Positions 14,301 to 51,700 of a DNA stretch of 55,774 bases are shown here, one piece after another. Every line of letters begins with the position of its first letter. The first letter of the stretch is position 1. The translations under genes were made by a program, and so were the position numbers. The stretch comes from Candidatus Ornithomonoglobus sp. (lineage in GTDB: Bacteria; Bacillota; Clostridia; UBA1381): the NCBI GenBank assembly GCA_045539555.1, contig JAZQFP010000019.1, positions 1 to 55,774 on the forward strand. The letters run 5' to 3'. The notes under the pieces are model-generated. The model had not been told where the DNA came from. It worked only from the letters and a program-made list of their open reading frames with translations, and searched no databases.

Positions 14301-14308
14301 TTTTATTT

Positions 14309-15427: not shown

Positions 15428-15464
15428 TTTATATTCATTCCTTTCAAGTTATAAGTCTTAATGT

Positions 15465-16670: not shown

Positions 16671-16686
16671 GTTTAATCATCTCCTA

Positions 16687-18591: not shown

Positions 18592-18763
18592 CCGTTTTTC
18601 ACCTCTTTTGTTGCTTTGAATACTTAATATAGAGATAACAGTAACCACTCTATATTATAATTTGTTATCCATCATTATATCACATTTAAGTTTGTGAGTA
18701 AATACCATAATTGAATAAAAATATACCGTTTTTTTATACATTTTTACCAAAAATAACTTTTTA

Positions 18764-22958: not shown

Positions 22959-22984
22959 TTGTTTTCTCCTTCCACCTGTGTTTT

Positions 22985-24826: not shown

Positions 24827-24827
24827 A

Positions 24828-28412: not shown

Positions 28413-29174
28413 TTATACTGTTGCTTCTACCAACATGTTCATATCATATAGTCCCTGGGGTTTGTTTTTCATAAACTTAGCCGCCTTAATAGCGCCTACC
28501 GCAAAGACTTCTTTTGACGCAGCATGGTGGGATAATTCAATTACTTCATCATTACCTGCAAAGATAATTTCATGGTCGCCAACTATTGTTCCGCCGCGAA
28601 CTGCACTTATTCCAATCTCTGTTGTCTTTCTCTTGCGTCGTACACTATGACGGTCAAACACATATTCCGCGGGATATGACAAAGTCTCGTCTATTGCATC
28701 GGCTATTGTCAATGCAGTACCGCTTGGTGCATCAATTTTCTTATTATGATGTCTCTCAACTATCTCTATGTCAAAATTGCCCTCTAAAAGTTTTGCCGCC
28801 TGTTTTGCAAGAGATATTAATAGATTAATTCCAAGGCTCATATTGGCTGAAAAAAACACAGGAATTTCTTTTGATGCCGCTATAAACGTTTCCTTATCCT
28901 CCACAGAATAGCCTGTTGTTGCAAGAATTACGGGAGTCTTTGTTCTCTTACAATAGTTAAGAATACTGCCAAGACATGAGGGGTGTGAGAAGTCAATTAC
29001 TACATCTGCCTCACCACTGAATTCCTCAATAGATTTAACAACAGGATAGGAATTATTTATCTCTGTGTTTATATCAACACCACAAACAATTTCCGCATCG
29101 CTATCTTCTGCAACAAGACGGGATATAACCTGACCCATCTTACCGTTACAGCCGTTCATGATTATTCTTGTCAT
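28413..29174 (-). CDS. dapB: 4-hydroxy-tetrahydrodipicolinate reductase
   Basis: 253 aa. MNGCNGKMGQ NAD(P) loop and ERHHNKKIDAPSGTA. Confidence 0.93.
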   Translation of the reverse strand: MTRIIMNGCNGKMGQVISRLVAEDSDAEIVCGVDINTEINNSYPVVKSIEEFSGEADVVIDFSHPSCLGSILNYCKRTKTPVILATTGYSVEDKETFIAASKEIPVFFSANMSLGINLLISLAKQAAKLLEGNFDIEIVERHHNKKIDAPSGTALTIADAIDETLSYPAEYVFDRHSVRRKRKTTEIGISAVRGGTIVGDHEIIFAGNDEVIELSHHAASKEVFAVGAIKAAKFMKNKPQGLYDMNMLVEATV

Positions 29175-29194
29175 GATGTAAAATTCCTTTCTTA

Positions 29195-30079
29195 TCAGAT
29201 AAGATTGTGCTTTTTAAGTGTGGCTTTAAGCTTGTTTAGGTTGCCCTCTTCCATATCTGTTAAAGGCAAACGCAAGTTGCCCACTTTCTTGCCCATAAGG
29301 TTCAGAGCTGTCTTTACGGGAATGGGGTTAACTTCAATAAACAGGTTGTTTACAAGTTCAAGATACTCCAACTGCATTTTTGTAGCAGTCTTACAGTCGC
29401 CGTCAAGGTATGCCTGACACATATCATGAGTTTCCTTGGGGCAAACATTTGCAAGAACTGAAATAACACCCTTGCCTCCCAATGACATAACGGGAATTAT
29501 CATATCATCATTACCTGAATAAATATAAAGCTCGGGCACCTCTGCTGCAACCTGTGCAGTATAGCTTATGTTACCACTTGCCTCTTTAATAGCAACGATG
29601 TTATCAATCTTTGCAAGTTCTTTCAATGCACCGATTGAAATATTAAGACCTGTTCTTGAAGGAACATTGTAAAGGATAATGGGAACATTAACTGCATTTG
29701 CAATAGCTGAGAAATGTTCAACCAAACCCTTTTGTGTTGTCTTATTGTAGTACGGTGTTACTTGAAGCAAACCGTCAACGCCTAACTTTTCTGCCTCTTT
29801 TGAAAGCTCGATTGAATGAGCTGTCTCATTTGAGCCTGTTCCTGCAATTACGGGTACACGACCTGCAACCTTCTTAACTGTATATTCTATTGCTGCTAAA
29901 TGCTCTGCATCAGGCATTGTTGACGCCTCGCCTGTTGTACCGCAGATAATAATAGCGTCTGTCTTGTTTTCTATATGCCAGTCAATTAACTCGCCCAAAA
30001 CATCGTAGTTTGTCTTCTGTCCGTCAAAGGGTGTTACTATCGCAACGCCTGAACCTGTAAAGGGTAATGTCTTTGCCAT
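29195..30079 (-). CDS. dapA: 4-hydroxy-tetrahydrodipicolinate synthase
   Basis: 294 aa. [17 protein letters not shown] and the active-site Lys in VAIKEASG. Confidence 0.95.
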
Positions 30080-30111
30080 AACTATCTTTCCTTTCTATAT
30101 GAAATCACATA

Positions 30112-31212
30112 TTAGTCCATGTAACCCTTTGCTGTAAGCAATTCTGCAAGAAGTACTGCACCACCTGCGGCACCTCTTAGGGTATTATGGCTCATTGAAA
30201 CCATTTTATAATCATACTGTGTTGACTCTCTTAAACGTCCGCAAGAAATTGCCATTCCGCCGTCTATCTCACGAGCTGTTTTAATCTGGGGCTGTGTGGG
30301 CTCCTCTGCCTCTGTATGAACGTATAAGAACTGCTTGGGAGCATGGGGAAGTTCAAGCTTCTGGGGCTCACCCTTAAACTCACGCCACATTGCTTCAATC
30401 TCCTCAACTGAGGGCTTATTAACGCCATCCTTAAATGAGAAGAATATAGCCGCTGTATGTCCGTCAGATACGGGTACACGATATGTCTGACACTCAATCT
30501 GTAACTCTGTTGAGGGAACGATTTCTTTGCCGTCTACCTTACCTAAAATCTTGTTAGGCTCAACCTCTGACTTCATTTCCTCGCCACCAATGTAGGGAAT
30601 CAGGTTATCTACCATCTCGGGCCATGTCTCAAATGTCTTACCTGCACCTGAAATTGCCTGATATGTTGTAACTAAGGCATGGTCAATGGGATATTTAGCG
30701 TTAACTACTGCCATTGCAGGTAGGTATGACTGCAATGAACAGTTTGACTTAACCGCAACAAAGCCACGCTTTGTGCCAAGTCTTTCTCTCTGTGCAGGAA
30801 TAATCTCCAAGTGCTCGGGGTTAATCTCAGGGATAATCATAGGAACATCAGGAGTATGACGGTGTGCACTGTTGTTTGAAACAACAGGACATTCTGCCTT
30901 TGCATATCTCTCTTCAAGAGCCTTAATCTCATCCTTTTTCATATCAACTGCACAGAAAACAAAATCTACCATTCCAGCAATTTTCTCAACATCTTCTGTT
31001 GCATTCATAACTATCATATCTTTAACATTTGCAGGGATATCCATATCCATACACCACTTTGCTCCAACCGCTTCTGTGTATGTCTTACCCGCACTTCTGG
31101 GAGATGCTGCAAGAACTGTGATGTCATACCAGGGATGATCAAACAATAATGTAATAAATCTCTGGCCAACCATTCCTGTTGCACCGATAATACCAACCTT
31201 ATACTTTTTCAT
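30112..31212 (-). CDS. asd: Aspartate-semialdehyde dehydrogenase
   Basis: 366 aa. IIGATGMVGQ and the active-site Cys in KSNCSLQS. Confidence 0.92.
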   Translation of the reverse strand: MKKYKVGIIGATGMVGQRFITLLFDHPWYDITVLAASPRSAGKTYTEAVGAKWCMDMDIPANVKDMIVMNATEDVEKIAGMVDFVFCAVDMKKDEIKALEERYAKAECPVVSNNSAHRHTPDVPMIIPEINPEHLEIIPAQRERLGTKRGFVAVKSNCSLQSYLPAMAVVNAKYPIDHALVTTYQAISGAGKTFETWPEMVDNLIPYIGGEEMKSEVEPNKILGKVDGKEIVPSTELQIECQTYRVPVSDGHTAAIFFSFKDGVNKPSVEEIEAMWREFKGEPQKLELPHAPKQFLYVHTEAEEPTQPQIKTAREIDGGMAISCGRLRESTQYDYKMVSMSHNTLRGAAGGAVLLAELLTAKGYMD

Positions 31213-31299: not shown

Positions 31300-31470
31300 T
31301 TTGGTGAAGATAGCACTCCACCTTTTAGTGACAGTCATACTGTTATTAGCAGCATAACCAGCATAACTTTTGCGAAAAGTTACACTTCGGCGTTTTCCCC
31401 TTTCTCTGTGCTTCAACGATTACGCATCTCTCCCCACAGGTACTCTTGAATTACGCGCCTCTACCTGAAT
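31300..31470 (-). promoter_or_regulatory. Lysine riboswitch (L-box) aptamer
   Basis: The minus-strand RNA carries the L-box landmarks in order: GGTAGAGGCGCG, TTCAAGAGTA, GGGGAGAGA, GAAAGGGGAAAACGCCGAAG, GCTGG, ACTGTCAC, GGTGGAGTGCT. It sits upstream of asd-dapA-dapB. Confidence 0.85.
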
Positions 31471-31494
31471 AGATAATATTCACTTGTTACTATA

Positions 31495-36248: not shown

Positions 36249-37607
36249 CTATACTCTCTCCAAAGAACACACAGCCTCTATATGAGATGTATGGGGGAAC
36301 ATATCAACGCCAATGCATTTGGTGGGGGTATATCCTAATTCACTTAAAAACTTCGCATCTCTTGCCAATGTCGCCACATTACATGATACATATACTATTC
36401 TCTTTGGCTCTGCACTTGCAATTGCTTTTAATGTCGCCTCATCGCTGCCTTTTCTCGGTGGGTCAAGTATTACAATGTCTGGCTTTAACCCCTCGTAAAT
36501 CAGCTTAGGGACGGCATTTTCTGCACTGTCGGCAAAAAACTTTGCATTTGTTATATCGTTATTTTTTGCATTCTTTTTCGCGTCCTCAATAGCTTGTTCT
36601 ACTATCTCAACACCTGTTACAACTTTCGCTTTTTTTGCCGCCGCAAGAGAAATTGTGCCTATTCCGCAGTACACGTCAAGAACATTGTCATTCTCTGTAA
36701 TCTCTGCAAACTCCAATGCCTTGCCATATAATTTCTCTGTCATAACAGGGTTTATTTGATAAAAACTATGGGGTGAAATCTCGAATTCTATTCCACACAA
36801 TGTATCCGTAATTACGCTTTTGCCATAAACTAACTTGTTTTCAAGCCCCAAAACCGAATTTCCACGGCTCTCATTTATGTTTATATAAATTGATACAATT
36901 TTCTCTGAAACTTCTCTCAATTTCTCCACTAAAATTTCTATGCTCGGCAATGATTTTCCGTTAATTGAGATTACCACCATAATCTCACCTGAAACCTTAC
37001 CATCACGGATAAATACACGACGAACTAAACCTTTATGTTTTTCCTCGTCATAAACGGTTACATTAGCCTCGGCCATATATTCTTTTACCGCGTCTACAAT
37101 TTTACTATTTATCTCACTTCCCACCATACAGTCATCCACAGGGATAATCTCATGGGAACGCTTTGCATAAAAACCGCTCTGCACCTCGCCATTTTTACCA
37201 AGACCAATGGGAAAAATGCACTTGTTTCGATATCTCTCGGGGGTATCCATTCCTATAACGTCATCACACACTATGCCCTTAAACCCACCAATTCTCTCCA
37301 TAGCAGATACTATAAAGCCCTTTTTTATATCAAGTTGAGAATTATAGTCTATATGTTGAAGATGACATCCGCCACATCTCTTGTAAACGGGGCACACGGG
37401 TTCTATACGCATAGGAGAGGGAGTAATAATATTGAGAACTCGTCCTATTGCATACCGCGAAAGAACTTTCACTACCACAATTTCTACAATATCACCTGTA
37501 ACGGACATAGGAACAAAAACAGTAAACCCGTCAACTGTGCCGATGCCGTTTCCATCCGAGGATACGCCTGTTATTTCAATTTTATAATGTGCATTTTTCT
37601 CAACCAT
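36249..37607 (-). CDS. rlmD: 23S rRNA (uracil-5-)-methyltransferase RlmD/RumA family (TRAM, Fe-S Cys cluster, SAM MTase)
   Basis: N-terminal TRAM domain. Cys cluster CPVYKRCGGCHLQH. SAM motif VLDVYCGIGT. Catalytic Cys in VYVSCN. Confidence 0.88.
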   Translation of the reverse strand: MVEKNAHYKIEITGVSSDGNGIGTVDGFTVFVPMSVTGDIVEIVVVKVLSRYAIGRVLNIITPSPMRIEPVCPVYKRCGGCHLQHIDYNSQLDIKKGFIVSAMERIGGFKGIVCDDVIGMDTPERYRNKCIFPIGLGKNGEVQSGFYAKRSHEIIPVDDCMVGSEINSKIVDAVKEYMAEANVTVYDEEKHKGLVRRVFIRDGKVSGEIMVVISINGKSLPSIEILVEKLREVSEKIVSIYININESRGNSVLGLENKLVYGKSVITDTLCGIEFEISPHSFYQINPVMTEKLYGKALEFAEITENDNVLDVYCGIGTISLAAAKKAKVVTGVEIVEQAIEDAKKNAKNNDITNAKFFADSAENAVPKLIYEGLKPDIVILDPPRKGSDEATLKAIASAEPKRIVYVSCNVATLARDAKFLSELGYTPTKCIGVDMFPHTSHIEAVCSLERV

Positions 37608-37805: not shown

Positions 37806-37833
37806 AAAAAAACTGCACTAAGTGCAGTTTTTT
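37806..37833. terminator. Bidirectional intrinsic terminator ending the BMC operon
   Basis: AAAAAAACTGCAC-TAA-GTGCAGTTTTTT, 30 nt after the pduT-like stop. Confidence 0.85.
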
Positions 37834-37864: not shown

Positions 37865-38410
37865 TTAAAGCACGGCTTCCCATAATTCTTCATGAGGATT
37901 TGCAATAACCTCTGTGTTAATCAAAACACCCTGCTCTGCTGCAAGTAGACCACCTGCATCAACTGCTGCGCGGACATCACTTACATCACCTGTTAGTGTT
38001 ACAAAGCACTTTCCTGCAAGGCCTCGTGCTACACGAACTTCAATTAGCTCGATATAGCCCGACTTAACTGCCGCATCAGCAGCCTCAATGGCACTTGCTG
38101 CTGTAAATGTCTCAATTATACCCAAAGCTCGTTTTTTCTTTACATCAACTGCACCATGGATAGCCTCAAATACATTCTTGCTCAGGTTTCCTATTACAAA
38201 TGTATCAATCAACGCGTCCTCTGCAACAACCTTTGCACGATCAACTGACGCTTTAATCGCTGACAACTCACCGCCAACGATTGTAACGAACTTACCGGGA
38301 CAAACTGAACCGGAGCTTAGAAGTGTTATTCCTGCACTCTTTAGCATTTCGTCGGTTACAACAATACCTTTTGATACATTTTTAACCTCGACTAATCCTA
38401 TTGAATTCAT
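37865..38410 (-). CDS. pduT: BMC-T shell protein (tandem BMC domains, PduT-like, with Fe-S-ligand Cys)
   Basis: 181 aa. Two BMC repeats (IGLVEV... and LGIIETFTAASAIEAADAAVK...). Cys in SSGSVCPGKF, at the position PduT uses for its pore 4Fe-4S. Confidence 0.85.
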   Translation of the reverse strand: MNSIGLVEVKNVSKGIVVTDEMLKSAGITLLSSGSVCPGKFVTIVGGELSAIKASVDRAKVVAEDALIDTFVIGNLSKNVFEAIHGAVDVKKKRALGIIETFTAASAIEAADAAVKSGYIELIEVRVARGLAGKCFVTLTGDVSDVRAAVDAGGLLAAEQGVLINTEVIANPHEELWEAVL

Positions 38411-38423
38411 TACATCTCACCTC

Positions 38424-39758
38424 TTACTTTCCGATAACGACAAATCTGTCGGTAATATCCCTTACAGTACCGTCTATGCTTGTATGCATTGTTGTGCCAA
38501 GGTCCTCATAGGCAGTTGCTGCTACAACCTGACCGCGCTTAACCTTATCACCAATGTTTACAACTGCACTGGCAGGTTTTCCTACATGCTGTTTTAATTC
38601 AATGTATACACAATCAGGTATGAACACATTGTCCTTTTTCTCTACGTGGCTCTTTACGTACTTTCTTATGCCAAGGCGATCAATAAGCTTATCTGATGAA
38701 ATAAGTCTTGATGCACGAACATCGCGTACCTTTTCAGGTGCAATGTTGTTCTCTCGTCTTAGACCGTACTTGCCAAGATTTCCCTTAATTTCCATTGATA
38801 ACTTTGAGGGGAATAGTCCCTGCTGGCAAGCTATTACTGAACAAATACCACAGCCACAGCATAAAGCATTCTGCAAGAATGCCTCTGTGTTCTTTACCTC
38901 ACCATGAGATGCTGCACGAACAGTCTTATGTACCTCCAAGTTATAGCCCAAAAGGTATCTGGGACACATATCAGTACACATTGTGCAGTTACAACATGCA
39001 GCTGATGCGCGTTTCATTGAAACGCCGATAGGCTGTTTCATTCTTTGAACTATGCCATGTGTTATGGGGAATATTAAAAGTCCCTTTGTTGTCTTTGTAA
39101 CAACATCATTCTCCAAATCAACAAGCTTACCCATCATAGGTCCGCCGTTTACAACGGCCTTGCCATCAAGATTACCATAGCCTACTGCTTTTAATAAGTC
39201 CTTGATTTTCATACCCATGGGAGCAACTATTGTTATGTCCTCGGGTACATCGCCACCGATTGTAATATATTTGTCAATTACAGGCTTTCTGTTATTTACT
39301 GCATTGTAAATGTTATAAACTGTCTCAACATTTATAACCATAACGCCTACCATAACGGGAATTGCACCCTCAGGGATAATCTTACCCGTTGTCTCGTATG
39401 TAAGCATTACCTCATCACCTGCGGGGTAAACATCAGGAATTTCCTTAATCTTTACTCTTGTGCCCTTTAAGGATGCTACAATTCTCTCGTTGAGAAGGTG
39501 CATATTCTTGCCCTTTATACCGATAATTGCCTCTTTGGCATCCATTGCATCGCACAACAGGTTAAGAGTTTCAACAAGCTCACCTAAATGATACTCCAAC
39601 AAATGATGGTCTACCATCATAAGCGGCTCACATTCTGCGGCGTTTACAACTATTTGCTCTACATTGGCAGAAAACTTTCTGTGTGTAGGGAATCCGGCAC
39701 CACCTGCACCAACAATTCCGGCATCATATACCAGCTTTTGAAGCTCTTCTAATTTCAT
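38424..39758 (-). CDS. pduS: PduS/RnfC-like flavo-iron-sulfur oxidoreductase (NADH-binding 51K-type, SLBB, 2x[4Fe-4S])
   Basis: GIVGAGGAGFPTHRKF. CCNCTMCTDMCP and CCGCGICSVIAC ferredoxin motifs. ATG 39758 lies behind GGAGGAAG; the track start is 39788. Confidence 0.8.
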   Translation of the reverse strand: MKLEELQKLVYDAGIVGAGGAGFPTHRKFSANVEQIVVNAAECEPLMMVDHHLLEYHLGELVETLNLLCDAMDAKEAIIGIKGKNMHLLNERIVASLKGTRVKIKEIPDVYPAGDEVMLTYETTGKIIPEGAIPVMVGVMVINVETVYNIYNAVNNRKPVIDKYITIGGDVPEDITIVAPMGMKIKDLLKAVGYGNLDGKAVVNGGPMMGKLVDLENDVVTKTTKGLLIFPITHGIVQRMKQPIGVSMKRASAACCNCTMCTDMCPRYLLGYNLEVHKTVRAASHGEVKNTEAFLQNALCCGCGICSVIACQQGLFPSKLSMEIKGNLGKYGLRRENNIAPEKVRDVRASRLISSDKLIDRLGIRKYVKSHVEKKDNVFIPDCVYIELKQHVGKPASAVVNIGDKVKRGQVVAATAYEDLGTTMHTSIDGTVRDITDRFVVIGK

Positions 39759-39814
39759 TACCGCTTCCTCCAATTTTTGAATTTGCACTCAAAAAAGATG
39801 TTATGTAATACAGG

Positions 39815-40075
39815 TTATACCTGTTTTTTGTCTAAAATACCAACTATCAATGCATCAATGGGTACATTTTCCTTGCCCATGCCAACTCTTGCGCCTGAGC
39901 CCTGAGTTATAATAACATCTTCGCCTATTCCAGCACCAACACCGTCAACGGCTACTAAGAACTTGTCAACAAGTTCACCCTTCTCTATGCACTGAACAAG
40001 CATAAATTTACTACCCACAAGTGAATCTAACTTATGAGTTGAAACTACGCTTCCATATACTCTACCTAAAATCAT
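39815..40075 (-). CDS. BMC-P pentameric vertex protein (EutN/CcmL/PduN family)
   Basis: 86 aa. MILGRVYGSVVSTHKLDSLVGSKFMLVQ... Confidence 0.88.
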   Translation of the reverse strand: MILGRVYGSVVSTHKLDSLVGSKFMLVQCIEKGELVDKFLVAVDGVGAGIGEDVIITQGSGARVGMGKENVPIDALIVGILDKKQV

Positions 40076-40114
40076 AATATCAATCCTTTCTGCAACCTTT
40101 GTTACAGACAGTTT

Positions 40115-40750
40115 TTATTTAGTCAAAATCTTGATTATGTCGCCTGTCTTTAATGCACAAGCATTCGCATCATCTGTATCGATATGCATTTCAGGAGTAA
40201 AGCTCTCGTGAACTCGTACCTGAACATTGTAAAATCTTGTCGGTTTGCCGGTCTCAACCTCAACATCAACAAGGTCATTATCCTTTACACCGTACTTCTC
40301 CGCAAGATACGGGGGTAGGTGAATGTGTCTGTTAGCAATAATACAACACTCGTTAAGGAAAATACTTCCCTTAGGTCCTACCATTGCCATGGGCGCTGAG
40401 CCCTTTAACTCTCCTGAGGGACGTACAGGGGGACTGATTTTTAATTTGAATGTGTCTGTTCTTGACACTTCAATCTGGCTCTCTTTTCTAAGAGGGCCTA
40501 ATACTCTTACATTTTCAATTGAGCGTAGGTTGGGGCTTACGATTGTAACGCACTCCTCCGCTGCGAACTGGCCACCCATTAGCTCCTTTTTCTTAGTTAG
40601 CTTGTAGCCCTCGCCAAAAAGAGCATATAAATCTTTCTCTGAAAGATGAACATGTCTCGCGGAAACTCCTATCTTTATTACGTCATCACTTTCTTGCTTT
40701 TTAAGGGTATCAATTACCGCATTAGCAATAAGCTCTTCTAATGATGCCAC
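40115..40750 (-). CDS. pduL: Phosphate acyltransferase PduL
   Basis: Two PduL repeats (GVSARHVHLSEKDLYALFG and IIANRHIHLPPYLAEKYG). N-terminal amphipathic helix SLEELIANAVIDTLKK. GTG start behind TAGGAGGGA. Confidence 0.88.
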   Translation of the reverse strand: MASLEELIANAVIDTLKKQESDDVIKIGVSARHVHLSEKDLYALFGEGYKLTKKKELMGGQFAAEECVTIVSPNLRSIENVRVLGPLRKESQIEVSRTDTFKLKISPPVRPSGELKGSAPMAMVGPKGSIFLNECCIIANRHIHLPPYLAEKYGVKDNDLVDVEVETGKPTRFYNVQVRVHESFTPEMHIDTDDANACALKTGDIIKILTK

Positions 40751-40845
40751 TCAAAATCCCTCCTATGTACCGATTAGTTTTAATAGATGGTACATATACG
40801 CCACAATGGGCGTATATGTACTCTATGGAATATGTATTCTATCTA

Positions 40846-41121
40846 TTAAACTGTGGGTAGAATCTTCTCAACGTCGCCGTGGGGACGAGGAATAACGTGA
40901 ACTGATACTAGCTCACCAAGTCTAGCGCCTGCAGCTGAACCTGCATCTGTTGCAGCCTGAACAGCACCTACATCGCCTCTAACCATAACTGTAACTAGAC
41001 CTGAACCGATTCTCTCTGTTCCGATTAGCTGTACGTTAGCTGCCTTTACCATTGCATCTGCTGCCTCGATTGCTGCTACAAGACCTCTTGTCTCTACCAT
41101 TCCTAATGCCTCTACTGCCAT
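40846..41121 (-). CDS. BMC-H hexameric shell protein (PduA/EutM type)
   Basis: 91 aa. [26 protein letters not shown]...[18 protein letters not shown]. Confidence 0.92.
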
Positions 41122-41215
41122 TTTATTTTCCTCCTATTTCTTTCCGGGGTCTTGCCCCTAAAATTTACTTTGTTAATATTGTTTTATATCTTAAAACGCT
41201 TAGCGTTTTAATTCA

Positions 41216-41626
41216 TTATTTTTTTGTTCCCGTCTTTTTTACAGGAGCCTTGCTTTTAGCTGTTGTAGTTGTTTTTGCCTTTTTCTCAGCTACGGGGCCA
41301 ACATGTGTTGCCGCGGTCTCTGAATTAGGCTTCTTTGTAACCTTTTTGTCTAAGTGCAAGTAGGGAAGAATCTCCTTGTGAGGTCTTGCAATTACCTGTG
41401 AAGCCTTGAAGCTTCCAAGCTCCCTTGCTCTTGCCTCACCTGCATCAACTGATGCCTTTACCGCTGTCAGCTCACCTTTTACTACAATAGTAACAAGTCT
41501 GCCGCCCAGCTTTCTTTCTGTTGCTACAAACTCAACGTCTGCTGCCTTACACATATCGTCAAGCATAATGATTGCATCGCCAAGTCCGCTTACTTCAACC
41601 AATCCTATTGAGAATTCTTTTGCCAT
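41216..41626 (-). CDS. BMC-H shell protein with a divergent pore loop and a 46-aa Lys/Thr/Ala-rich C-terminal tail
   Basis: SIGLVEVSGLGDAIIMLDDMCKAADV...ERKLGGRLVTIVVKGELTAV, followed by the tail HLDKKVTKKPNSETAATHVGPVAEKKAKTTTTAKSKAPVKKTGTKK. Confidence 0.85.
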   Translation of the reverse strand: MAKEFSIGLVEVSGLGDAIIMLDDMCKAADVEFVATERKLGGRLVTIVVKGELTAVKASVDAGEARARELGSFKASQVIARPHKEILPYLHLDKKVTKKPNSETAATHVGPVAEKKAKTTTTAKSKAPVKKTGTKK

Positions 41627-41639
41627 AGCTCAATCCTCC

Positions 41640-41912
41640 TTAATAGAATGAGGGAAGTATTTTTGCTATCGCGTCATCCGGCTGAGGAATAACGTGAGTT
41701 GCATAAACTTCGCCTACGGCTTCCGCCGCTGCCTTACCTGCGGCTACTGCGGCACGAACTGCGGCTACCTGACCTGTAACTACTACGTTAACAAGTCCCG
41801 AACCAATTTTTACTGTGCCGACAAGTTTTACCTCCGCCGCTTTTGTCATAGCGTCTGTGGCGTCAATTGCTCCTGTAAGGCTTCTTGTTTCAATTAGTCC
41901 TAATGCCTGCAT
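41640..41912 (-). CDS. BMC-H hexameric shell protein (PduA/PduJ type)
   Basis: MQALGLIETRSLTGAIDATDAMTKAAEV...KIGSGLVNVVVTGQVAAV. ATG 41912 lies 9 nt behind AGGAGG; the track start is TTG 41918. Confidence 0.9.
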   Translation of the reverse strand: MQALGLIETRSLTGAIDATDAMTKAAEVKLVGTVKIGSGLVNVVVTGQVAAVRAAVAAGKAAAEAVGEVYATHVIPQPDDAIAKILPSFY

Positions 41913-41927
41913 GGGCAATCTCCTCCT

Positions 41928-42266
41928 TTACGCTCCGTTTTTAATCTGACCGACTATGTCCCGACCAACAGATGTTCTCTTTGCCATTTTAACGGCATCA
42001 TCTGTGGGGCCTGTAAGTACGTGACTGCAAATTACTCCTGAAACAGACTCTGCTGCGTTAACCGCTGCATCAACTGCCGCCTTTACGGCTGAAACCTCAC
42101 CCTCTACCTTGATTGCCATAATTACTGGCACATCAACAGTGGGGTCTGCGGGTTTATTTGAGTCAATTGCTATAACCTTTACGTCTGCCGCTTTCGCTGC
42201 TGCGTCTGCCGCAGTAATTGCAGTTACAAAGCCGAACATTTCTACTATACCAATAGCTTTATTCAT
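41928..42266 (-). CDS. Divergent BMC-domain shell protein with an enlarged pore-loop region and a C-terminal extension
   Basis: MNKAIGIVEMFGFVTAITAADAAAKAADVKVIAIDSNKPADPTVDVPVIMAIKVEGEVSAV... ATG 42266 lies behind AAGGAG; the track start is GTG 42275. Confidence 0.75.
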   Translation of the reverse strand: MNKAIGIVEMFGFVTAITAADAAAKAADVKVIAIDSNKPADPTVDVPVIMAIKVEGEVSAVKAAVDAAVNAAESVSGVICSHVLTGPTDDAVKMAKRTSVGRDIVGQIKNGA

Positions 42267-42289
42267 ACTCTGCACTCCTTACTGACGTA

Positions 42290-43510
42290 TTAGTCTTGGT
42301 TTACGATTGCTATCTTCAAGCCCTTCTGTGCAAGGTTTGTTTCAAGCGCCTCGTTGATTTCTTCAAGAGGATACTTATGTGTGATAAGGTCCTTCATGGG
42401 AAGCCCTATTGCCTGTGCCCTCTTTAAGAAGTCAAATGTTCTTGCATAATCCCTTAGGGTATATACCCATGTGCCAACAAGTGTGATTTCCTTTGCACAC
42501 AAGTCAAAGTGGGGGTTAATTGTTGCATCACCGCCGTTGATGAAGAAACCAAGCTCACATAGACCGCCGCCGTTTCTGATAAACTTGTAGATATTACCAT
42601 GTGCAACAGGTGCGCCTGTACACTGGAAAGCAAAATCTGCAAGATATCCGCCGAATGCATCCTTAACCGCCTCTGTAAGAGCTTCAATTCCCTTATGGTT
42701 CATAAAGTTTACAGTGTTTGTTGCACCCATACGCTTCGCGAATTCAAGTCTCTGCTCGTTTCCGTCAACTGCTACAATGTTTTCAATTCCCATTGTGCGA
42801 AGAACTGCTATACAGATTAGACCGATAGGTCCGCAACCCTGCACAACAACTCTTGAATTAAATCTCAAAATGTTTGTAAGCTTTGCTCTCTCTACGGCAT
42901 GGATAAGTACCGCACAGGGCTCTATCAAAATTCTTGAATCAAGGTCAAGGTCGCTTACATTAAATACTGTTGAGCCACCTCTGATTATCATATAATCTGA
43001 GAACCAACCGTTTAGGTGAACATCATCATCAGGAAGCAAACCATAAACGTCTGCACCGCCGACATTCTGCTTGTTAAGGTCAAACATTGTAATGTCAGGG
43101 TTATCCTTAAATATCATACAAGTAACAACCTTGTCGCCGATATTAAGGGGCTTTCCTGCACTGTCAAGCTTAACATTCTTACCCATCTTTACGATTTCAC
43201 CTGTTCCCTCGTGTCCAAGAACAACGGGAATTAGTGAGAAGGGGTCAACTTTGTATTCGTGAGCATCTGTACCACAAACGCCACAACCCTCAACCTTAAC
43301 TAAGATATCGTCATCGCCAAGCTCGGGAATTGGATATTCCTGAATCTCAAACTTTTTAAGGTCTGTAAGCATTGCAACCTTTGCAGTCTTGGGGATTGCA
43401 CCGCCGCCTGTGTTTCCTGATCTTACAGGAGTAGGTGCGGGGGCTCCGCCTGTCATTTCTTTAAGTACCTGCTGCACCAATGCAGCAATCTCATTTTCAT
43501 TTATTGCCAA
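42290..43510 (-). CDS. Zn-dependent medium-chain alcohol dehydrogenase with an N-terminal encapsulation-peptide-like helix
   Basis: GCGVCGTDAHE and GHEGTGEIV Zn motifs. Rossmann VVVQGCGPIGL. N-terminal extension MAINENEIAALVQQVLKEMTGGAPAPTPVRSGNTGGG. TTG start 9 nt behind AAGGAG. Confidence 0.85.
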   Translation of the reverse strand: MAINENEIAALVQQVLKEMTGGAPAPTPVRSGNTGGGAIPKTAKVAMLTDLKKFEIQEYPIPELGDDDILVKVEGCGVCGTDAHEYKVDPFSLIPVVLGHEGTGEIVKMGKNVKLDSAGKPLNIGDKVVTCMIFKDNPDITMFDLNKQNVGGADVYGLLPDDDVHLNGWFSDYMIIRGGSTVFNVSDLDLDSRILIEPCAVLIHAVERAKLTNILRFNSRVVVQGCGPIGLICIAVLRTMGIENIVAVDGNEQRLEFAKRMGATNTVNFMNHKGIEALTEAVKDAFGGYLADFAFQCTGAPVAHGNIYKFIRNGGGLCELGFFINGGDATINPHFDLCAKEITLVGTWVYTLRDYARTFDFLKRAQAIGLPMKDLITHKYPLEEINEALETNLAQKGLKIAIVNQD

Positions 43511-43528
43511 ACCGTATCACTCCTTTTC

Positions 43529-44953
43529 TTATATAATGTATAATGCATCTGATAGTACGCATCGTCTTAATCTTGTGAAGCTTCTGGGAGATGTGATACC
43601 CTCGCCCGTAGGACCTGCAATAGTAAATGTAGTCCAACCCTCAGCATTGAAACCAATACCAGCATAACTGGGTGCGTTCTTTACAAAGATTGTTGTCTCT
43701 ATTGCCTTAGCGTACTGAGTCATATGGTCAACATTCTTGGAATGAAGATGAGCTGTATGACGGTTGCCGTGCTCTGCCTTAACTGCCATTTCAACAGCCT
43801 CGTCAAAGGTGTTTACTCTTACAATAGGTAGGATGGGCATCATAAGCTCTGTCTGCACAAATGCCTGAGAAAAATCTGTTTCACAGATGATACATCTTAT
43901 ATCGTCTGACGCCTTAACGCCAATCTGTGCCAAAATCTTCTTAGCATCACGGCCAACCCAGTCCTTATTGATTGTGCGGACTCTCTGGCCTTTCTTGTTC
44001 TCTGTCCAGACAAGAACAACATCTTCAAGTTCCTTTATCTGTCTGTCATTAAGAAGATAGCATCCATTTTTAACCATATGATGAATAAGCTCGTCTGCAA
44101 TCTCTCTTAGTGCAAACACTTCCTTCTCTGCAATACAGGGAAGGTTGTTATCAAATGTACATCCGTCAACGATATCCTTTGCAGCTTTCTTAATGTCTGC
44201 CGTCTCGTCAACGATTACGGGCGGGTTACCAGCACCTGCGCCAATTGCTTTCTTTCCTGATGAAAGCAACATTCTTACAACTCCTGGACCACCTGTTGCA
44301 ACCAACATCTTAACTGACGGATGATTAACCATCATATTTGATGTTTCCATTGTGGGATTAGCCACAGTTACAACCACGTTTTCCGGGCCACCCGCTGCAA
44401 GAACTGCTCTGTTTACCAAATCAACAGCGTATGCAGAAATTCTCTTCGCGTGGGGGTGGGGGTTAAATACAACCGCGTTACCACCTGCAAGCATACAGAT
44501 ACTGTTACAGATAACTGTACAGCTGGGGTTTGTTGAAGGTGTTATTGCACCGATAATGCCGTAGGGCGCCATCTCTACAAGTGTAAGACCACCGTCTCCT
44601 GAGAATGCTCTTGTATCAAGATCCTCTGTACCCAAGGTCTTGTCTGCCACAAGATGATGCTTTAATATCTTGTGATAAACATTACCCATTCCTGTATCCT
44701 CAACGGCAAGTTTTGCCATTGTCTCGGCTTCTGCATGAGTGAGCTTTCTGATTTCGCTTATAATGTTTTCTCTTTGCTGTTTATTGTACTTTCTAAACTC
44801 TGTATAAGCCTTGTTTACCGCATCAAGAGCTTCCTCCATTGTGTCGAAGACGCCTATCTGTTTACGGTTGTTGCTCGGCTTTTGTATTGTTGATAAGTCC
44901 ATTTCTGAAAGCACGTCTTTAACCAGCTGAGTAACTTTTTTCTCGTCTATCAC
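43529..44953 (-). CDS. CoA-acylating aldehyde dehydrogenase (PduP/EutE family) with an N-terminal encapsulation peptide
   Basis: 474 aa. Catalytic Cys in FDNNLPCIAEKE. N-terminus MIDEKKVTQLVKDVLSEMDL. GTG start behind AAGGAGG. Confidence 0.88.
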   Translation of the reverse strand: MIDEKKVTQLVKDVLSEMDLSTIQKPSNNRKQIGVFDTMEEALDAVNKAYTEFRKYNKQQRENIISEIRKLTHAEAETMAKLAVEDTGMGNVYHKILKHHLVADKTLGTEDLDTRAFSGDGGLTLVEMAPYGIIGAITPSTNPSCTVICNSICMLAGGNAVVFNPHPHAKRISAYAVDLVNRAVLAAGGPENVVVTVANPTMETSNMMVNHPSVKMLVATGGPGVVRMLLSSGKKAIGAGAGNPPVIVDETADIKKAAKDIVDGCTFDNNLPCIAEKEVFALREIADELIHHMVKNGCYLLNDRQIKELEDVVLVWTENKKGQRVRTINKDWVGRDAKKILAQIGVKASDDIRCIICETDFSQAFVQTELMMPILPIVRVNTFDEAVEMAVKAEHGNRHTAHLHSKNVDHMTQYAKAIETTIFVKNAPSYAGIGFNAEGWTTFTIAGPTGEGITSPRSFTRLRRCVLSDALYII

Positions 44954-44971
44954 TGTTCTGCCTCCTTTGAC

Positions 44972-45514
44972 TTATTGAGTTAATTTCGCATCAAGGTAAC
45001 GGACACCGATTTCTGCCAATATGATATCCTCCTCCTTAGTGCCACCCGAAACACCAATGGCTCCGATAACTTCGCCGTTTACTGTTAAGGGCTTACCTCC
45101 GCCAAGAAGTAAAATGCCATCTCCATTGGAGAGACCATCAAAGGCACCTCCGCGAGACTCTTCCAGGGCAATCTCGGTAGGCATCTTTAATGCCGCCGCC
45201 GTGTATGCCTTATCCTGAGCAGCCTTTATTGATGCAACATAGGAATTATCCATTGCCTCTAAGGCAACTAATCTGCCGTCGCCGTTCACAACGGCAATAA
45301 CAGCATTGAGTCCCATCATCTTTGCACCTTTTTCAACACAGTAGATAATCTCTTTCGCAAGATCAAGTCCTACGGAATGTTTTGTTATAAGTCCCAACTT
45401 GTCAGGCTTAATGTTATGTACTGCAACAGGTTTTTTTATCTCTTTTGGCGGTTTTGGGGGAGTTGAGCCTGTGATTTTCGCAACTTGCGATAACATATCG
45501 TCAATTGTCATCAT
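44972..45514 (-). CDS. GlcG/DUF336 (PduO C-terminal-domain-like, heme-binding-type) protein with an N-terminal targeting-like helix and Pro/Lys linker
   Basis: Core AVIAVVNGDGRLVALEAMDNS...AAQDKAYTAAALK...GAIGVSGGTKEEDIILAE is typical of DUF336. N-terminus MMTIDDMLSQVAKITGSTPPKPPKEIKKP. Confidence 0.72.
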   Translation of the reverse strand: MMTIDDMLSQVAKITGSTPPKPPKEIKKPVAVHNIKPDKLGLITKHSVGLDLAKEIIYCVEKGAKMMGLNAVIAVVNGDGRLVALEAMDNSYVASIKAAQDKAYTAAALKMPTEIALEESRGGAFDGLSNGDGILLLGGGKPLTVNGEVIGAIGVSGGTKEEDIILAEIGVRYLDAKLTQ

Positions 45515-45542
45515 TGGCCCATCAGCTCCTATCCGTTAGAAT

Positions 45543-46430
45543 TTATTTGTTGTACTTTTCAAGTACTCTCTTTGTAACCTCTGCTACTATCTTCTCAATG
45601 TCATTGTTGCCACAGCTGCATGACTTGTCGTCTTTGCAAACCTGTGAGGGTAGGGGCTGGAAGCCGTGGTATGCTGCGCTTGACTCCTTGCCGTACTTCT
45701 CGTTTGCGTCTGTGGGAGACATTGAACATGTGTCATCCTCGTAACATCCTGGGCAAAGCTTCTCCATGGGGTGCTTACCAGGAACACCAAACTGCTTTCT
45801 AAGGTCAATTAGCTTCTTAACCTCACCGCAGGGGATTTCCTTTTCGCCACCAAGTAGTCTTGAATACATCAATAGCTTAGCATAGAACTCTGTTGACTCC
45901 ATTCTGAAGAACGCTGTGTTCAGGTCGCAACCAAATGACAATGCACCATGGTTTGCAAGTAGAACTGCGTCGTAATCCTGAAGATACGGCTCCAATGACT
46001 CAGGAATCTCCATTGTTGACGGTGTTCCGTACTGTGCAATGGGTACTGCGCCAAGGAAGATGATAGCCTCAGGCATAATTAGCTTATCAAGTGCGATACC
46101 TGCGATAGCAAATGATGTTGCAATCGGGGGATGCGCATGAACTACTGCCTTAACGTCAGGTCTCTGCTCATACACCTTTAAGTGCATCTTAAACTCTGAT
46201 GACGGTCTCCACTGACCATTGGGTTTCTTTAAGTTACCCTTTCCGTCAACCTCACAAATCATATCAGGAGTCATATAACCCTTTGATACGCCTGTGGGAG
46301 TAACGAAATATGTGTTGTCATCAATCTTAACTGAGAAGTTACCGTCGTTAGCGGCTACGAAACCGTCGTTGTAAATACGTCTACCGATTTCGCAAAGTTC
46401 TTTTTTGATTTCGTAATCTGACTTATACAT
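45543..46430 (-). CDS. Class II (FucA/RhaD/adducin-family) aldolase with a 74-aa Cys-rich C-terminal extension ending in an amphipathic helix
   Basis: NDGNFSV, VVHAHPP and LLANHGALSFG are metal-binding His motifs of class II aldolases. The tail reads MEKLCPGCYEDDTC...VCKDDKSCSCGNNDIEKIVAEVTKRVLEKYNK. ATG 46430 lies behind AGAGGG; the track start is 46448. Confidence 0.85.
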   Translation of the reverse strand: MYKSDYEIKKELCEIGRRIYNDGFVAANDGNFSVKIDDNTYFVTPTGVSKGYMTPDMICEVDGKGNLKKPNGQWRPSSEFKMHLKVYEQRPDVKAVVHAHPPIATSFAIAGIALDKLIMPEAIIFLGAVPIAQYGTPSTMEIPESLEPYLQDYDAVLLANHGALSFGCDLNTAFFRMESTEFYAKLLMYSRLLGGEKEIPCGEVKKLIDLRKQFGVPGKHPMEKLCPGCYEDDTCSMSPTDANEKYGKESSAAYHGFQPLPSQVCKDDKSCSCGNNDIEKIVAEVTKRVLEKYNK

Positions 46431-46483
46431 ATTTCTGCCCTCTTTCATTTTTTGATTTTTTTGTTTTATTTGGTTTTGTTTTT

Positions 46484-46512
46484 ATTATACACGATTTTTT
46501 TGGTTTTGTAAA
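46484..46512 (-). promoter_or_regulatory. Proximal SigA-type promoter of the BMC operon
   Basis: TTTACA, 17-nt spacer, TATAAT, about 50 nt upstream of the aldolase ATG. Confidence 0.55.
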
Positions 46513-46558
46513 GCCTTTTTCCTAAAAAAACCGTCAAAGTTTTGGGGTTTTTGACCTC

Positions 46559-46575
46559 AAAATGTGTACACTTTT
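46559..46575. promoter_or_regulatory. Palindromic candidate operator
   Basis: AAAATGTGTACACTTTT with a perfect 8-bp palindromic core GTGTACAC (46564-46571). It lies between the two promoter-like elements. Confidence 0.35.
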
Positions 46576-46586
46576 AACATATTATC

Positions 46587-46615
46587 ATTCTACCACATTT
46601 TCCTTGATATTTCAA
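46587..46615 (-). promoter_or_regulatory. Distal SigA-type promoter-like element upstream of the BMC operon
   Basis: TTGAAA, 17-nt spacer, TAGAAT, with extended -10 TG (TGgTAGAAT). Confidence 0.45.
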
Positions 46616-46677: not shown

Positions 46678-48060
46678 TTACTTTATACTATTTATGTACT
46701 TTTCTGCCTCGTTTATAGCCCTTAAAGTTACCGCTTTTGCAGGTCCGCCGATTACTGCTCTGTCATTTACACAAGTTTCCATTGAAACCGCCTCATAGAT
46801 GTCTTCCTCTATAATATCGGAGAAAGATTTCATTTCATCCATTGTAAGGTCATCTATCGACTTGTTATGCTCAATACAATAAAATACCATATTGCCGATA
46901 ACTGAATGTGCATCACGGAAAGGCAAACCTTTTTTAACAAGATAGTCCGCCGCATCAGTAGCGTTTGTAAAGCCACCCTTTGCACCTTCGTACATATTTA
47001 CCTTATTGACTTTCATTGTGCTTATCATATCACAGAATACGGGCAGACATAACTTAACTGTATCAATACTGTCAAAAATCTGCTCCTTATCCTCCTGCAT
47101 ATCCTTATTATATGCCAGAGGAATACCCTTCATCATTGTGAGAAGACCCATAAGGTTTCCATAAACTCTGCCCGTCTTGCCACGGATAAGCTCCGCAACA
47201 TCAGGGTTCTTTTTCTGGGGCATAATTGATGAGCCTGTTGAAAAAGCATCGTCCATCTCAACAAAAGAAAACTCGTTGCTTGACCACAAAATAAGTTCCT
47301 CAGAAAATCTGCTCATGTGCATCATAAGAATTGACAGACATGACGCAAGTTCCAAAACAAAATCTCGGTCAGAAACGCCATCTAATGAGTTCATTGTAAC
47401 TGCGTCAAAGCCAAGCTCCTTTGCAACAAACTCACGGTCAAGGGGATATGTTGTTCCCGCCAAAGCACCAGAGCCCAAGGGCATTACATTTGTTCTCTTA
47501 CGGCAATCGCAAAGTCTTTCGTAATCACGCTTGAACATTTCATAATATGCCATTGCGTGATGTGCAAAAGTTATAGGCTGAGCCTTTTGTAAATGTGTGT
47601 AACCTGGCATAATGGTATCTGTATTCTCTTTTGCAAGGTCGCAGAACACTTCCATTGTATGAACAAGCATTTCACAGATTTCCTGTGTTTCGTCCATAAG
47701 GTACATTCTTATGTCCAAAGCTACCTGGTCATTACGGCTTCTGCCTGTATGTAAACGCTTACCCGCATCTCCAATTCTATCGGTAAGAATTTTCTCTATG
47801 TTCATATGGATATCCTCGGCGTCAATAAGGAACTCCACCTTGCCGTTATCAATATCCTTTAATATATTTTTAAGCTCTGCCACAATTTTATCGGCATCTG
47901 CTTTTGGAATAATTCCCTGTTTTCCAAGCATTGTAGCGTGGGCAACAGAGCCTTTAATGTCCTGTTTATACATACGCTTATCAAAGCGAATGGATGAGTT
48001 GAAATCATCAACCTTTGTATCGGTGGACTTCCTGAATCGTCCGCCCCATAGTTTAGCCAT
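46678..48060 (-). CDS. argH: Argininosuccinate lyase
   Basis: 460 aa. MAKLWGGRF start, [10 protein letters not shown], and the signature [12 protein letters not shown]. Confidence 0.95.
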
Positions 48061-50668: not shown

Positions 50669-50700
50669 AAACCCGATGGAATTATTCTTCCATCGGGTTT
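50669..50700. repeat. Copy 2 of the AAACCCGATGGA...TCCATCGGGTTT hairpin; likely terminator of the CDF gene
   Basis: AAACCCGATGGA-ATTATTCT-TCCATCGGGTTT. On the minus-strand transcript its 5' arm and part of the loop encode the last residues and stop of the CDF protein (..NPMEE*). Confidence 0.7.
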
Positions 50701-51548
50701 ACATGTACCATACAATGTTTTACATTGTCTATTTTATTTTCTATATTGTCATGAACCTGCTCTGCAATTTTGTGAGCTTCAAGCAAACTGATGTTTCCGT
50801 CCTCGGCAATTTCCAAATCAACATATATTTTTGAGCCAAAACGGCGCGTCATAAGTGAGTCAATTCTCTTAACTCCCTCAATTTCCATTATACAATTTTT
50901 AATTTCTTCAACCTCTTCATCGCTACAAGCTCTGTCAACTAATCGGTTAACTGCATCCATAAATATGTCATAGGCTGCCTTTGCAATAAAGATACATATT
51001 ACAATACTTGCAATTGGCTCACAAATTTTATAGCCTAATAATGCACCACCGATACCAATAAGTGAGCCCACTGACGATAGCGCGTCAGAGCGATGATGCC
51101 ACGCGTCTGCCATCATAGATGATGAATCAATCTTAATGGCTGTTCTTTTAGTATAATGATACATCAATTCCTTAACAACAATGGATAATCCTGCAATATA
51201 CAGGGTTATTTTTGAGGGGATTTCAATCTCCGCACCTGTTATAATAATCTTAACGGCAGAAATACCTATTCCTATACCCGTTGCAAAAAGCATAATGGCA
51301 AGAATAATCGAAAAAATACATTCTATTCTCTCGTGGCCGTAGGGATGGTCATCATCTGACTTCTTCGCAGACATATTTATTCCAATCATAACCGCAACGG
51401 TTGAAACCACATCCGATGCAGAGTGTACCGCGTCCGATACCAACGCCTGAGAGTTTCCTATAAAACCCACTACAAATTTTAACGCCGATAGTATGAGATT
51501 TACAATTATTGTGGTTATTGAAACCTTGTTTGCAAGTTTTTTATCCAT
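50682..51548 (-). CDS. Cation diffusion facilitator (CDF) family divalent-metal efflux transporter
   Basis: 288 aa. Six TM helices with HSASDVVS and DAWHHRSDALSS metal-site motifs. C-terminal cytoplasmic domain. Confidence 0.88.
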   Translation of the reverse strand: MDKKLANKVSITTIIVNLILSALKFVVGFIGNSQALVSDAVHSASDVVSTVAVMIGINMSAKKSDDDHPYGHERIECIFSIILAIMLFATGIGIGISAVKIIITGAEIEIPSKITLYIAGLSIVVKELMYHYTKRTAIKIDSSSMMADAWHHRSDALSSVGSLIGIGGALLGYKICEPIASIVICIFIAKAAYDIFMDAVNRLVDRACSDEEVEEIKNCIMEIEGVKRIDSLMTRRFGSKIYVDLEIAEDGNISLLEAHKIAEQVHDNIENKIDNVKHCMVHVNPMEE

Positions 51549-51700
51549 ATAAAAATCCTCCTTGTCTTACGGGAATAGTGCGTTTTCCACCGTCCCGCAA
51601 AAGCCAAAGAGGATTTTTGCTGTTGTTTTCACAACCCGACCACACGCTTTCGCGCTGTCTGTTCAGTATATTCCGCTTTTTTAGTATGGGTGGAATTACC
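51549..51700 (-). promoter_or_regulatory. Structured 5' leader with an SD-sequestering helix (candidate metal-responsive riboswitch; class unassigned)
   Basis: In the minus-strand RNA, AAAAAUCCUCUUUG (51618-51605) can pair over 14 positions (one G-U) with CAAGGAGGAUUUUU (51564-51551), which contains the SD. Upstream are two GAAA-capped hairpins (CGC-GAAA-GCG at 51645-51654 and GUUGU-GAAA-ACAAC at 51622-51635). A CGGGA...UCCCG stem lies between the two arms. Confidence 0.45.

Follow-up and report, generated by a model that had tools for sequence, protein, structure and literature searches.

What does a bacterial microcompartment (BMC) process when a class II aldolase is all it has by way of a candidate signature enzyme and no sugar pathway is encoded beside it? 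This question is raised by a twelve-gene operon in a stretch of 55,774 nucleotides from Candidatus Ornithomonoglobus sp. (contig JAZQFP010000019.1), referred to below in its entirety as the 55.8-kb window. We think it probable that the locus is an intact, aldolase-signature catabolic BMC operon of the PVM-like/GRM5-like kind, whose enzymes would cleave L-fuculose-1-phosphate or L-rhamnulose-1-phosphate and disproportionate the resulting lactaldehyde, and which would have originated through loss of a B12-dependent module.

All twelve open reading frames (ORFs) of the operon lie closely packed on the minus strand and together span 37865-46448. Pfam and NCBIfam searches bore out the family assignment of every gene, listed here with the two flanking genes:

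46678-48060, argH, upstream flank of the operon
45543-46448, minus strand, class II (Zn- and dihydroxyacetone phosphate (DHAP)-dependent) aldolase; Aldolase_II PF00596, 161 bits
44972-45514, minus strand, DUF336/HbpS-like protein; Pfam PF03928
43529-44953, minus strand, CoA-acylating aldehyde dehydrogenase (AldDH) of the PduP/EutE type; Aldedh; NF011927, 694 bits against a cutoff of 403
42290-43510, minus strand, medium-chain Zn alcohol dehydrogenase (Zn-ADH); ADH_N PF08240 and ADH_zinc_N PF00107
41928-42275, minus strand, BMC-H 1, single-domain; PF00936
41640-41918, minus strand, BMC-H 2, single-domain; PF00936
41216-41626, minus strand, BMC-H 3; PF00936 over residues 6-82 of 136; the translation ends in a Lys/Thr-rich tail
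40846-41121, minus strand, BMC-H 4, EutM/PduA-like; PF00936, 106 bits; NF012018, 136.8 bits against a cutoff of 133
40115-40750, minus strand, PduL-type phosphotransacylase; PTAC PF06130, 236 bits; NF011652, 240 bits against a cutoff of 209
39815-40075, minus strand, BMC-P pentamer (vertex) protein; EutN_CcmL PF03319, 98 bits
38424-39788, minus strand, PduS-like flavoprotein/[4Fe-4S] protein; Complex1_51K, SLBB, Fer4 and RnfC_N
37865-38410, minus strand, PduT-like tandem-domain BMC-T; two PF00936, with similarity to TIGR02526 below its cutoff
36249-37607, rlmD-like methyltransferase, downstream flank of the operon

A first-pass annotation had described twelve co-directional genes between one promoter region and one terminator, encoding a full metabolosome core with its shell, and this description holds: coordinates, families, promoter-like sites and terminator were all found, and AldDH, Zn-ADH, PduL and the BMC-H, BMC-P and BMC-T proteins were identified by matches above cutoff or by Pfam. 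The core enzymes (CoA-acylating aldehyde dehydrogenase, phosphotransacylase and alcohol dehydrogenase) are thus all present, as is a shell set made up of four single-domain PF00936 proteins plus one protein each of the tandem-domain and PF03319 kinds. BMC-H 4 is the most conserved gene product of the operon, with 93-100% identity across the clade. The PduS-like protein combines an NADH-FMN domain, an SLBB domain, a two-cluster ferredoxin domain and an RnfC_N barrel, and the BMC-T protein keeps, judging from its translation, the pore Cys37 in the motif SVCPGKF, the residue which in PduT ligates a [4Fe-4S] cluster.

The aldolase has thousands of homologues, and for comparison we used the loci of the closest 80 species-level genomes, with flanks of up to 10 kb fetched on each side where the contig allowed. 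Apart from the isolate MD329, all represent uncultured Clostridia of the gut, sampled in chicken, ruminant, rabbit, mouse and human hosts, and they include Candidatus Ornithomonoglobus (aldolase identities of 98% and 94%) and Hominilimicola. The identical 12-gene order was found in about 70 complete loci, while the flanking genes vary by lineage and are housekeeping in kind; since gene order stays constant while the flanks differ, the operon behaves as an autonomous module. For each of the 12 genes, the ratio of non-synonymous to synonymous substitution rates (dN/dS) against several relatives was 0.02-0.2, at dS values of 0.2-3. The operon is intact, real, functional and conserved. The opposite view, that it is a decaying, non-functional remnant left behind after loss of a dehydratase, could draw on the stepwise loss of parts of PduO (described below), on two related loci (L059 and L080) which also lack Zn-ADH and two BMC-H genes, and on orphan aldolases without a BMC (L090 and L091). 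Nevertheless, the purifying selection on every gene effectively refutes it, all 12 ORFs are intact, and both the promoters and the gene order, the latter across about 80 species, are conserved, leaving this view with hardly any likelihood.

Further reduced forms of the locus exist as well. L059 and L080 keep PduS and PduT although Zn-ADH is missing and only two of the four BMC-H genes are left, and in L076 matches were found only for the aldolase, one BMC-H and PduL. Two basal aldolases stand without any BMC genes (L090, 3833-4600; L091, 9393-11599); one of them adjoins a CUT2-type ATP-binding cassette (ABC) transporter (accompanied in L091 by a binding protein of the Bmp family) and the other is an aldolase-adenosyltransferase-DeoR remnant. 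In these two the aldolase was apparently kept while the whole BMC disappeared.

The first-pass annotation had also stated that the aldolase is the sole candidate signature enzyme, with no sugar pathway, kinase, permease or regulator nearby, and our searches agree. Pfam annotation covered most window ORFs of at least 60 amino acids, the exceptions being the ABC gene at 24828-26561 and a handful of small ORFs. The ORFs annotated in this way include neither an acetate kinase, an FGGY kinase, a sugar isomerase, a permease nor a DeoR regulator, and no diol dehydratase or DHAP-shunt enzyme of the IF-2B or APH type. By tblastn, E. coli FucI/K/P/U and RhaA/B/T/M had no match in the window, the DeoR protein of the clade had no match anywhere in it, and PduC/D/E/G gave 0 matches both in the window and in the 80 related loci. 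The roughly 10 kb around the 80 related loci, where the contig allows, were likewise empty of sugar-pathway, kinase and regulator genes, apart from DeoR in some of them. The absence of ethanolamine ammonia-lyase and of a glycyl-radical enzyme with its activase, which had also been claimed, is borne out insofar as no annotated window ORF carries these Pfam families, a result with no dedicated homology search behind it. The candidate signature enzyme is thus the PF00596 protein, in a window with no PduCDE by tblastn.

What such a locus may descend from is suggested by its sisters. The next-closest aldolases fall into five clades, of which we sampled one locus each (L083 and L086-L089). In 5/5 of these the gene order is aldolase-PduC-PduD-PduE-PduG(H)-PduO (adenosyltransferase plus DUF336)-AldDH-Zn-ADH-BMC-H x4. 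Relative to the window, the sister aldolases are 56-68% identical, the AldDH 63-68% and the Zn-ADH 54-56%. Three of the five lie directly beside fucose/rhamnose genes: L086 has an FGGY kinase, a fucose isomerase, FucU and DeoR immediately upstream; L088 has an FGGY kinase, two major facilitator superfamily transporters and DeoR upstream; and upstream of L089 are a GH29 fucosidase, DeoR, RhaA, an FGGY kinase and an acetate kinase. Furthermore, L092, a basal locus without a dehydratase, has FucU 3 kb upstream, and no glycyl-radical dehydratase or activase is present in the gene tables of L092-L094. The substrate is consequently less open than the first-pass annotation had it, given that three of five sister lineages with the same gene order sit beside fucose/rhamnose genes.

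The position directly after the aldolase is particularly informative. It is occupied by a full PduO of about 310 amino acids in 8 loci belonging to the basal lineages, by the adenosyltransferase half only in 8 loci, by the DUF336 half only, which has gained an amphipathic N-terminus and a Pro/Lys linker, in 59 loci including the window, and by nothing in 6 loci. The DUF336 protein of the window is 43.6% identical to residues 200-339 (C-terminal domain) in PduO from the sister locus L083. On a neighbour-joining tree of aldolase plus AldDH these states map coherently, full PduO being the paraphyletic basal state, and the dehydratase-less clade, the DUF336-only clade and the clade uniting the adenosyltransferase-only and empty states each received bootstrap support of 200/200. 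On a FucA-rooted aldolase tree the dehydratase-less clade nests among pduCDE-bearing clades. That this position holds full PduO, either half of it or nothing suggests loss of the B12 module, and the sequences would be read most simply as one loss of the B12 dehydratase module, after which PduO decayed separately in different lineages. As the window's DUF336 protein is the surviving C-terminal half of PduO, an origin which the first-pass annotation had missed, the locus would derive from a B12-dependent ancestor; it appears to be a streamlined descendant of a BMC with aldolase and B12 diol dehydratase (pduCDE-GH-O), formed by deletion of the dehydratase module. A DeoR gene follows BMC-T in the full-PduO loci L058 and L092-L094; in all, 10 clade members carry DeoR in this position, orthologous to the DeoR of the fucose/rhamnose-linked loci.

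If the dehydratase were encoded elsewhere, whether as PduCDE or as a glycyl-radical enzyme, and targeted to the BMC, the full route from fucose or rhamnose to propionate would still be available and the organelle would handle propionaldehyde. Consistent with this, AldDH, Zn-ADH and PduL share 54-68% identity with their counterparts in pduCDE-containing loci, and the basal clade members keep an intact PduO adenosyltransferase, which is only sensible with a B12 enzyme to serve. Moreover, a dehydratase was present somewhere in 10 of 13 gut genomes with such a BMC and adjacent to it in only 6 (Ravcheev 2019). We nevertheless regard a complete propionate route as unlikely: no dehydratase homologue was found in the window, nor in the roughly 10 kb surrounding the 80 loci, and the window's lineage has neither the adenosyltransferase domain nor a reactivase, so that a B12 enzyme would have no cofactor repair inside the organelle. 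The decay of PduO in three ways across the clade is also what would be expected after dehydratase loss.

We then return to the aldolase and to a fuculose/rhamnulose-1-phosphate substrate. The enzyme keeps the Zn ligands of E. coli FucA (His104/106/167), its catalytic Glu85 and its phosphate site (Asn37, Thr52-Gly53 and Ser83-Ser84), and each of these residues is unchanged in 115 or more of 117 sequences from the clade. By these residues the protein fits the description of a FucA/RhaD-type, DHAP-dependent class II aldolase.

In the scheme that we favour, L-fucose and/or L-rhamnose would be isomerised and phosphorylated in the cytosol by the products of genes located elsewhere, and L-fuculose-1-phosphate or L-rhamnulose-1-phosphate would enter the shell, where the encapsulated Zn aldolase would yield DHAP, which exits to glycolysis, and L-lactaldehyde. 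Because no diol dehydratase is present, lactaldehyde itself would be the confined aldehyde. AldDH would oxidise half of it to lactoyl-CoA, making NADH; PduL would convert lactoyl-CoA to lactoyl-phosphate, recycling CoA, and a cytosolic kinase would then produce lactate and ATP. The other half would be reduced to 1,2-propanediol by Zn-ADH, recycling NAD+, and PduS with PduT could form an Fe-S/flavin electron conduit across the shell, able to trim the NADH balance. We infer the substrate in the window's lineage, the disproportionation of lactaldehyde and the role of PduS/PduT. A lactaldehyde scheme of this type, in which 1,2-propanediol and lactate are formed via lactoyl-CoA and lactoyl-phosphate, was proposed for the PVM loci (Erbilgin 2014) and is favoured for gut Firmicutes by Ravcheev 2019.

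Several points weigh against this assignment. Neither the 55.8-kb window nor the 10 kb around the loci of the 80 close relatives contains a fucose/rhamnose gene, so that the substrate assignment rests on orthology, at 56-61% identity, to aldolases of the sister loci. The aldolase of the window stays below every NCBIfam equivalog cutoff (best scores of 100-115 bits against cutoffs of 250-400), and it is about 30% identical both to the FucA structures and to DrdA 6BTD (77 and 75 bits, respectively). The aldehyde-pocket residues Tyr113/Phe131/Phe206 of FucA are replaced by Met/Pro/Arg throughout the BMC clade. AldDH and PduL are closest to enzymes of loci which process propionaldehyde, a dehydratase elsewhere in the genome would be compatible with the view from a single window, and the trees are neighbour-joining only, with a long outgroup branch. 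We also considered whether sequence could tell FucA from DrdA identity, and rejected this comparison as uninformative, the PDB and NCBIfam scores being nearly equal and all below cutoffs.

Some of these points could equally mean that the aldolase has shifted to another ketose-1-phosphate, such as 5-deoxyribulose-1-phosphate, methylthioribulose-1-phosphate, D-ribulose-1-phosphate or L-xylulose-1-phosphate, with the BMC detoxifying the aldehyde that results. Cleavage of the first two gives acetaldehyde-type products, and of the last two glycolaldehyde. Such a shift would account for the absence of deoxyhexose genes near any clade member, for the almost equal similarity to DrdA and FucA and for a pocket unlike that of E. 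coli FucA, and a Bmp/CUT2-type ABC transporter, of a binding-protein family which includes nucleoside binders, lies beside the BMC-less basal relatives. However, the same pocket residues are invariant in the sister aldolases directly beside fucI/fucK or rhaA/rhaB, and the DeoR which follows BMC-T in 10 clade members is orthologous to that of fucose/rhamnose-linked loci. Neither the annotated window ORFs nor the flank-gene clusters of the 80 loci, as far as the 20 commonest are concerned, include a DHAP-shunt kinase or isomerase (APH, IF-2B). Salvage of 5'-deoxyadenosine would in addition be a low-flux housekeeping process, for which a 12-gene organelle is hard to justify. The DHAP-shunt substrates proposed by the first-pass annotation therefore find no support in gene context, although FucA and DrdA cannot be told apart by sequence similarity alone, and we hold a shift of substrate to be quite improbable.

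Five enzymes of the operon have terminal amphipathic helices, scored by hydrophobic moment, and linkers outside their Pfam domains. On the aldolase the helix is C-terminal (DIEKIVAEVTKRVLEKY) and follows a Cys-rich linker; on AldDH, Zn-ADH, PduL and the DUF336 protein it is N-terminal. The helix of AldDH ranked top for hydrophobic moment, that of Zn-ADH is followed by a Gly/Pro linker and the two occupy about 45 amino acids ahead of the ADH_N domain, and the DUF336 protein begins with the helix TIDDMLSQVAKITG, continues with the Pro/Lys linker and ends with the DUF336 domain. These helices are typical of encapsulation peptides, through which the five proteins would presumably be encapsulated.

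The DUF336 gene has a dN/dS of 0.06-0.2 and, being under selection, is a retained part and not a pseudogene. Its relatives in the PDB are OrfY (2A2L), the formaldehyde sensor EfgA and the heme/cobalamin-binding C-terminal domain of PduO. The protein, an apparently lumen-targeted PduO remnant, may bind a small molecule or an aldehyde. PduS and PduT are kept under purifying selection in lineages without adenosyltransferase, DUF336 or dehydratase (L071, L073, L074 and L077-L079), and their retention where all of PduO is gone argues for an electron-transfer role independent of B12. Two features may be new: the series of PduO decay states, and a DUF336 protein that stands alone and is apparently targeted to the lumen. 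One could go further and regard the whole as an organelle repurposed after dehydratase loss, in which the DUF336 protein, rebuilt from the PduO remnant, would be an in-shell aldehyde binder or sensor and/or the aldolase would act on another ketose-1-phosphate; we find this distinctly unlikely, but if it were true, the retention of PduS/PduT without B12 genes would be a natural experiment for a B12-independent redox conduit.

With lactaldehyde disproportionation as the favoured function, the locus can be set among known BMC types. The first-pass annotation had placed it nearest to the PVM-like class, which stands, and had presented it as a possibly new type, which does not: aldolase-only BMC loci of Firmicutes are already catalogued as PVM-like (Axen 2014, cluster 4.2; Sutter 2021, 'PVMlike'), gut Firmicutes 'Pvm' BMCs without a dehydratase are discussed in Ravcheev 2019, and about 80 species-level genomes share the gene order. 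Its expectation for a known type, namely an aldolase within FucA/RhaD in a catalogued locus tied to fucose/rhamnose genes, agrees for the most part with what we found, through the context of the sister loci. The Zn-ADH, described there as atypical, is used by GRM5 (Axen 2014) and stands at the same position in all sister loci.

Like the PVM-like loci of Firmicutes, the window has a class II aldolase as its sole signature in a clostridial host, a gene order syntenic with GRM5, DeoR in its relatives, and the same predicted chemistry from fuculose/rhamnulose-1-phosphate to lactaldehyde. It differs in that its core includes Zn-ADH, an alcohol dehydrogenase having been noted in only one PVM-like locus (Axen 2014), in its stand-alone DUF336 gene with a candidate encapsulation peptide, and in having no DeoR, which most members carry in the locus. 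The aldolase plus B12 dehydratase loci (L083 and L086-L089) share the order from aldolase through AldDH-Zn-ADH-BMC-H x4, but have pduC-D-E, pduG(H) and full PduO between aldolase and AldDH, and often fucI/fucK/fucU or rhaA/rhaB, DeoR and ackA upstream, whereas the window has none of these; they are possibly part of the 'GRM5like' group of Sutter 2021. From PDU the window is set apart by the failure to find PduCDE, PduGH or an adenosyltransferase in it, with only the DUF336 half of PduO remaining.

With GRM5, the fucose/rhamnose BMC of Clostridium phytofermentans (Petit 2013), the window shares a class II aldolase, Zn-ADH, AldDH and PduL, and its shell complement equals the published one when compared by description. 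The defining enzymes of GRM5, however, are a glycyl-radical 1,2-propanediol dehydratase and the activase belonging to it, and their domains are carried by no annotated window ORF, a negative to which, as said, no dedicated search was added. The window's gene order and protein lengths match locus tags of the Paramaledivibacter PVMlike entry and of the GRM5like entry of Firmicutes bacterium CAG:41, as far as tag spacing and lengths go; in the latter, shell locus-tag spacings and lengths (H 113, H 152 and P 86 amino acids) fit the window order. We found no paper using the term 'GRM5like' and no description of it in the supplement text of Sutter 2021. The kind of locus is thus known, PVM-like/GRM5-like, and by locus-tag spacing and lengths its label may be either of the two.

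The PVM loci of Planctomycetes and Verrucomicrobia (Erbilgin 2014), with an aldolase signature and no dehydratase, are the best functional analogue. They have three distinct BMC-P and two BMC-H proteins, an LDH-family alcohol dehydrogenase, acetate kinase and DeoR, in another order and in other phyla, whereas the window has one BMC-P, a medium-chain Zn-ADH, no kinase, and relatives within Clostridia. DrdA/Ald2 (Beaudoin 2018, 6BTD) shares the Aldolase_II fold, DHAP chemistry and about 30% identity; it belongs to three-gene kinase-isomerase-aldolase clusters, with no shell genes or encapsulation peptide, and the window has no such neighbours. We regard the locus as an ordinary representative of its family, and the accepted picture of BMC types is left as it was.

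The interest of the locus lies in its ecology and in its series of deletions. Deoxyhexoses from mucin and pectin are major substrates in the gut, and the presence of a dehydratase decides whether they are converted to propionate or to 1,2-propanediol and lactate, a currency of cross-feeding. Deletion of the B12 module seems to have moved this clade, which is widespread in the gut metagenomes of humans, ruminants, rabbits and chickens, to the route ending in 1,2-propanediol and lactate. The decay of PduO offers a natural deletion series for asking what DUF336 and PduS/PduT do without a B12 enzyme. A literature search for BMCs of Monoglobus or Hominilimicola returned nothing relevant.

Control of the operon was approached through its upstream and downstream regions, in which the following features were found:

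46484-46615, minus strand, promoter region; from promoter scan, sequence and an alignment of 14 relatives
46615-46587, minus strand, distal promoter-like site TTGAAA-17-TAGAAT, TG-extended; promoter scan
46512-46484, minus strand, proximal promoter-like site TTTACA-17-TATAAT, the stronger of the two; promoter scan
37806-37833 (approximate), minus strand, intrinsic terminator AAAAAACTGCAC-TTA-GTGCAGTTTTTTT, a hairpin plus T7 read from the sequence 3' of BMC-T

The promoter region runs from the distal site through the palindrome GTGTACAC, a hairpin with a T-run and the proximal site CTTTACAA-17-TATAAT to an A/C-rich leader. Both promoters, the palindrome and the leader are kept in the 14 aligned relatives, irrespective of the upstream gene. 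The palindrome with its hairpin and T-run (46550-46590, minus strand) lies just 3' of the distal promoter and before the proximal one, an arrangement, likewise kept in those relatives, which could be an operator or attenuator for a trans-acting regulator, the DeoR gene being absent from the window's lineage. An Rfam scan gave no adenosylcobalamin or other riboswitch 5' of the operon, its only matches being a Lysine and a NiCo element elsewhere in the window. The ATG at 46430, Met7 of the longest ORF, is preceded by GAGGG and conserved in relatives, and the upstream ATG at 46448 is not; the true start of the aldolase is thus probably 46430 and not the longest-ORF start. Downstream, the rlmD-like gene has a promoter-like site of its own (37668-37640).

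The rest of the window is mostly housekeeping, with glycogen genes, metG, asd-dapA-dapB, comEC, ftsW, tuf and similar. The glycogen cluster is complete (7894-18648, minus strand), comprising a glgB-like branching enzyme, glgC, glgD, glgA, glgP and an alpha-amylase-family gene. In the region 20817-26561 (minus strand), a 713-amino-acid protein with a GAP1-N2 (GTPase-associated protein) domain adjoins an ABC exporter gene pair (22985-24958 and 24828-26561). The Lysine riboswitch (109 bits; 31303-31471, minus strand) lies upstream of the asd-dapA-dapB operon (28413-31212), and the NiCo (nickel/cobalt) riboswitch (54 bits; 51588-51676, minus strand) lies directly 5' of a cation-diffusion-facilitator efflux gene (50682-51548).

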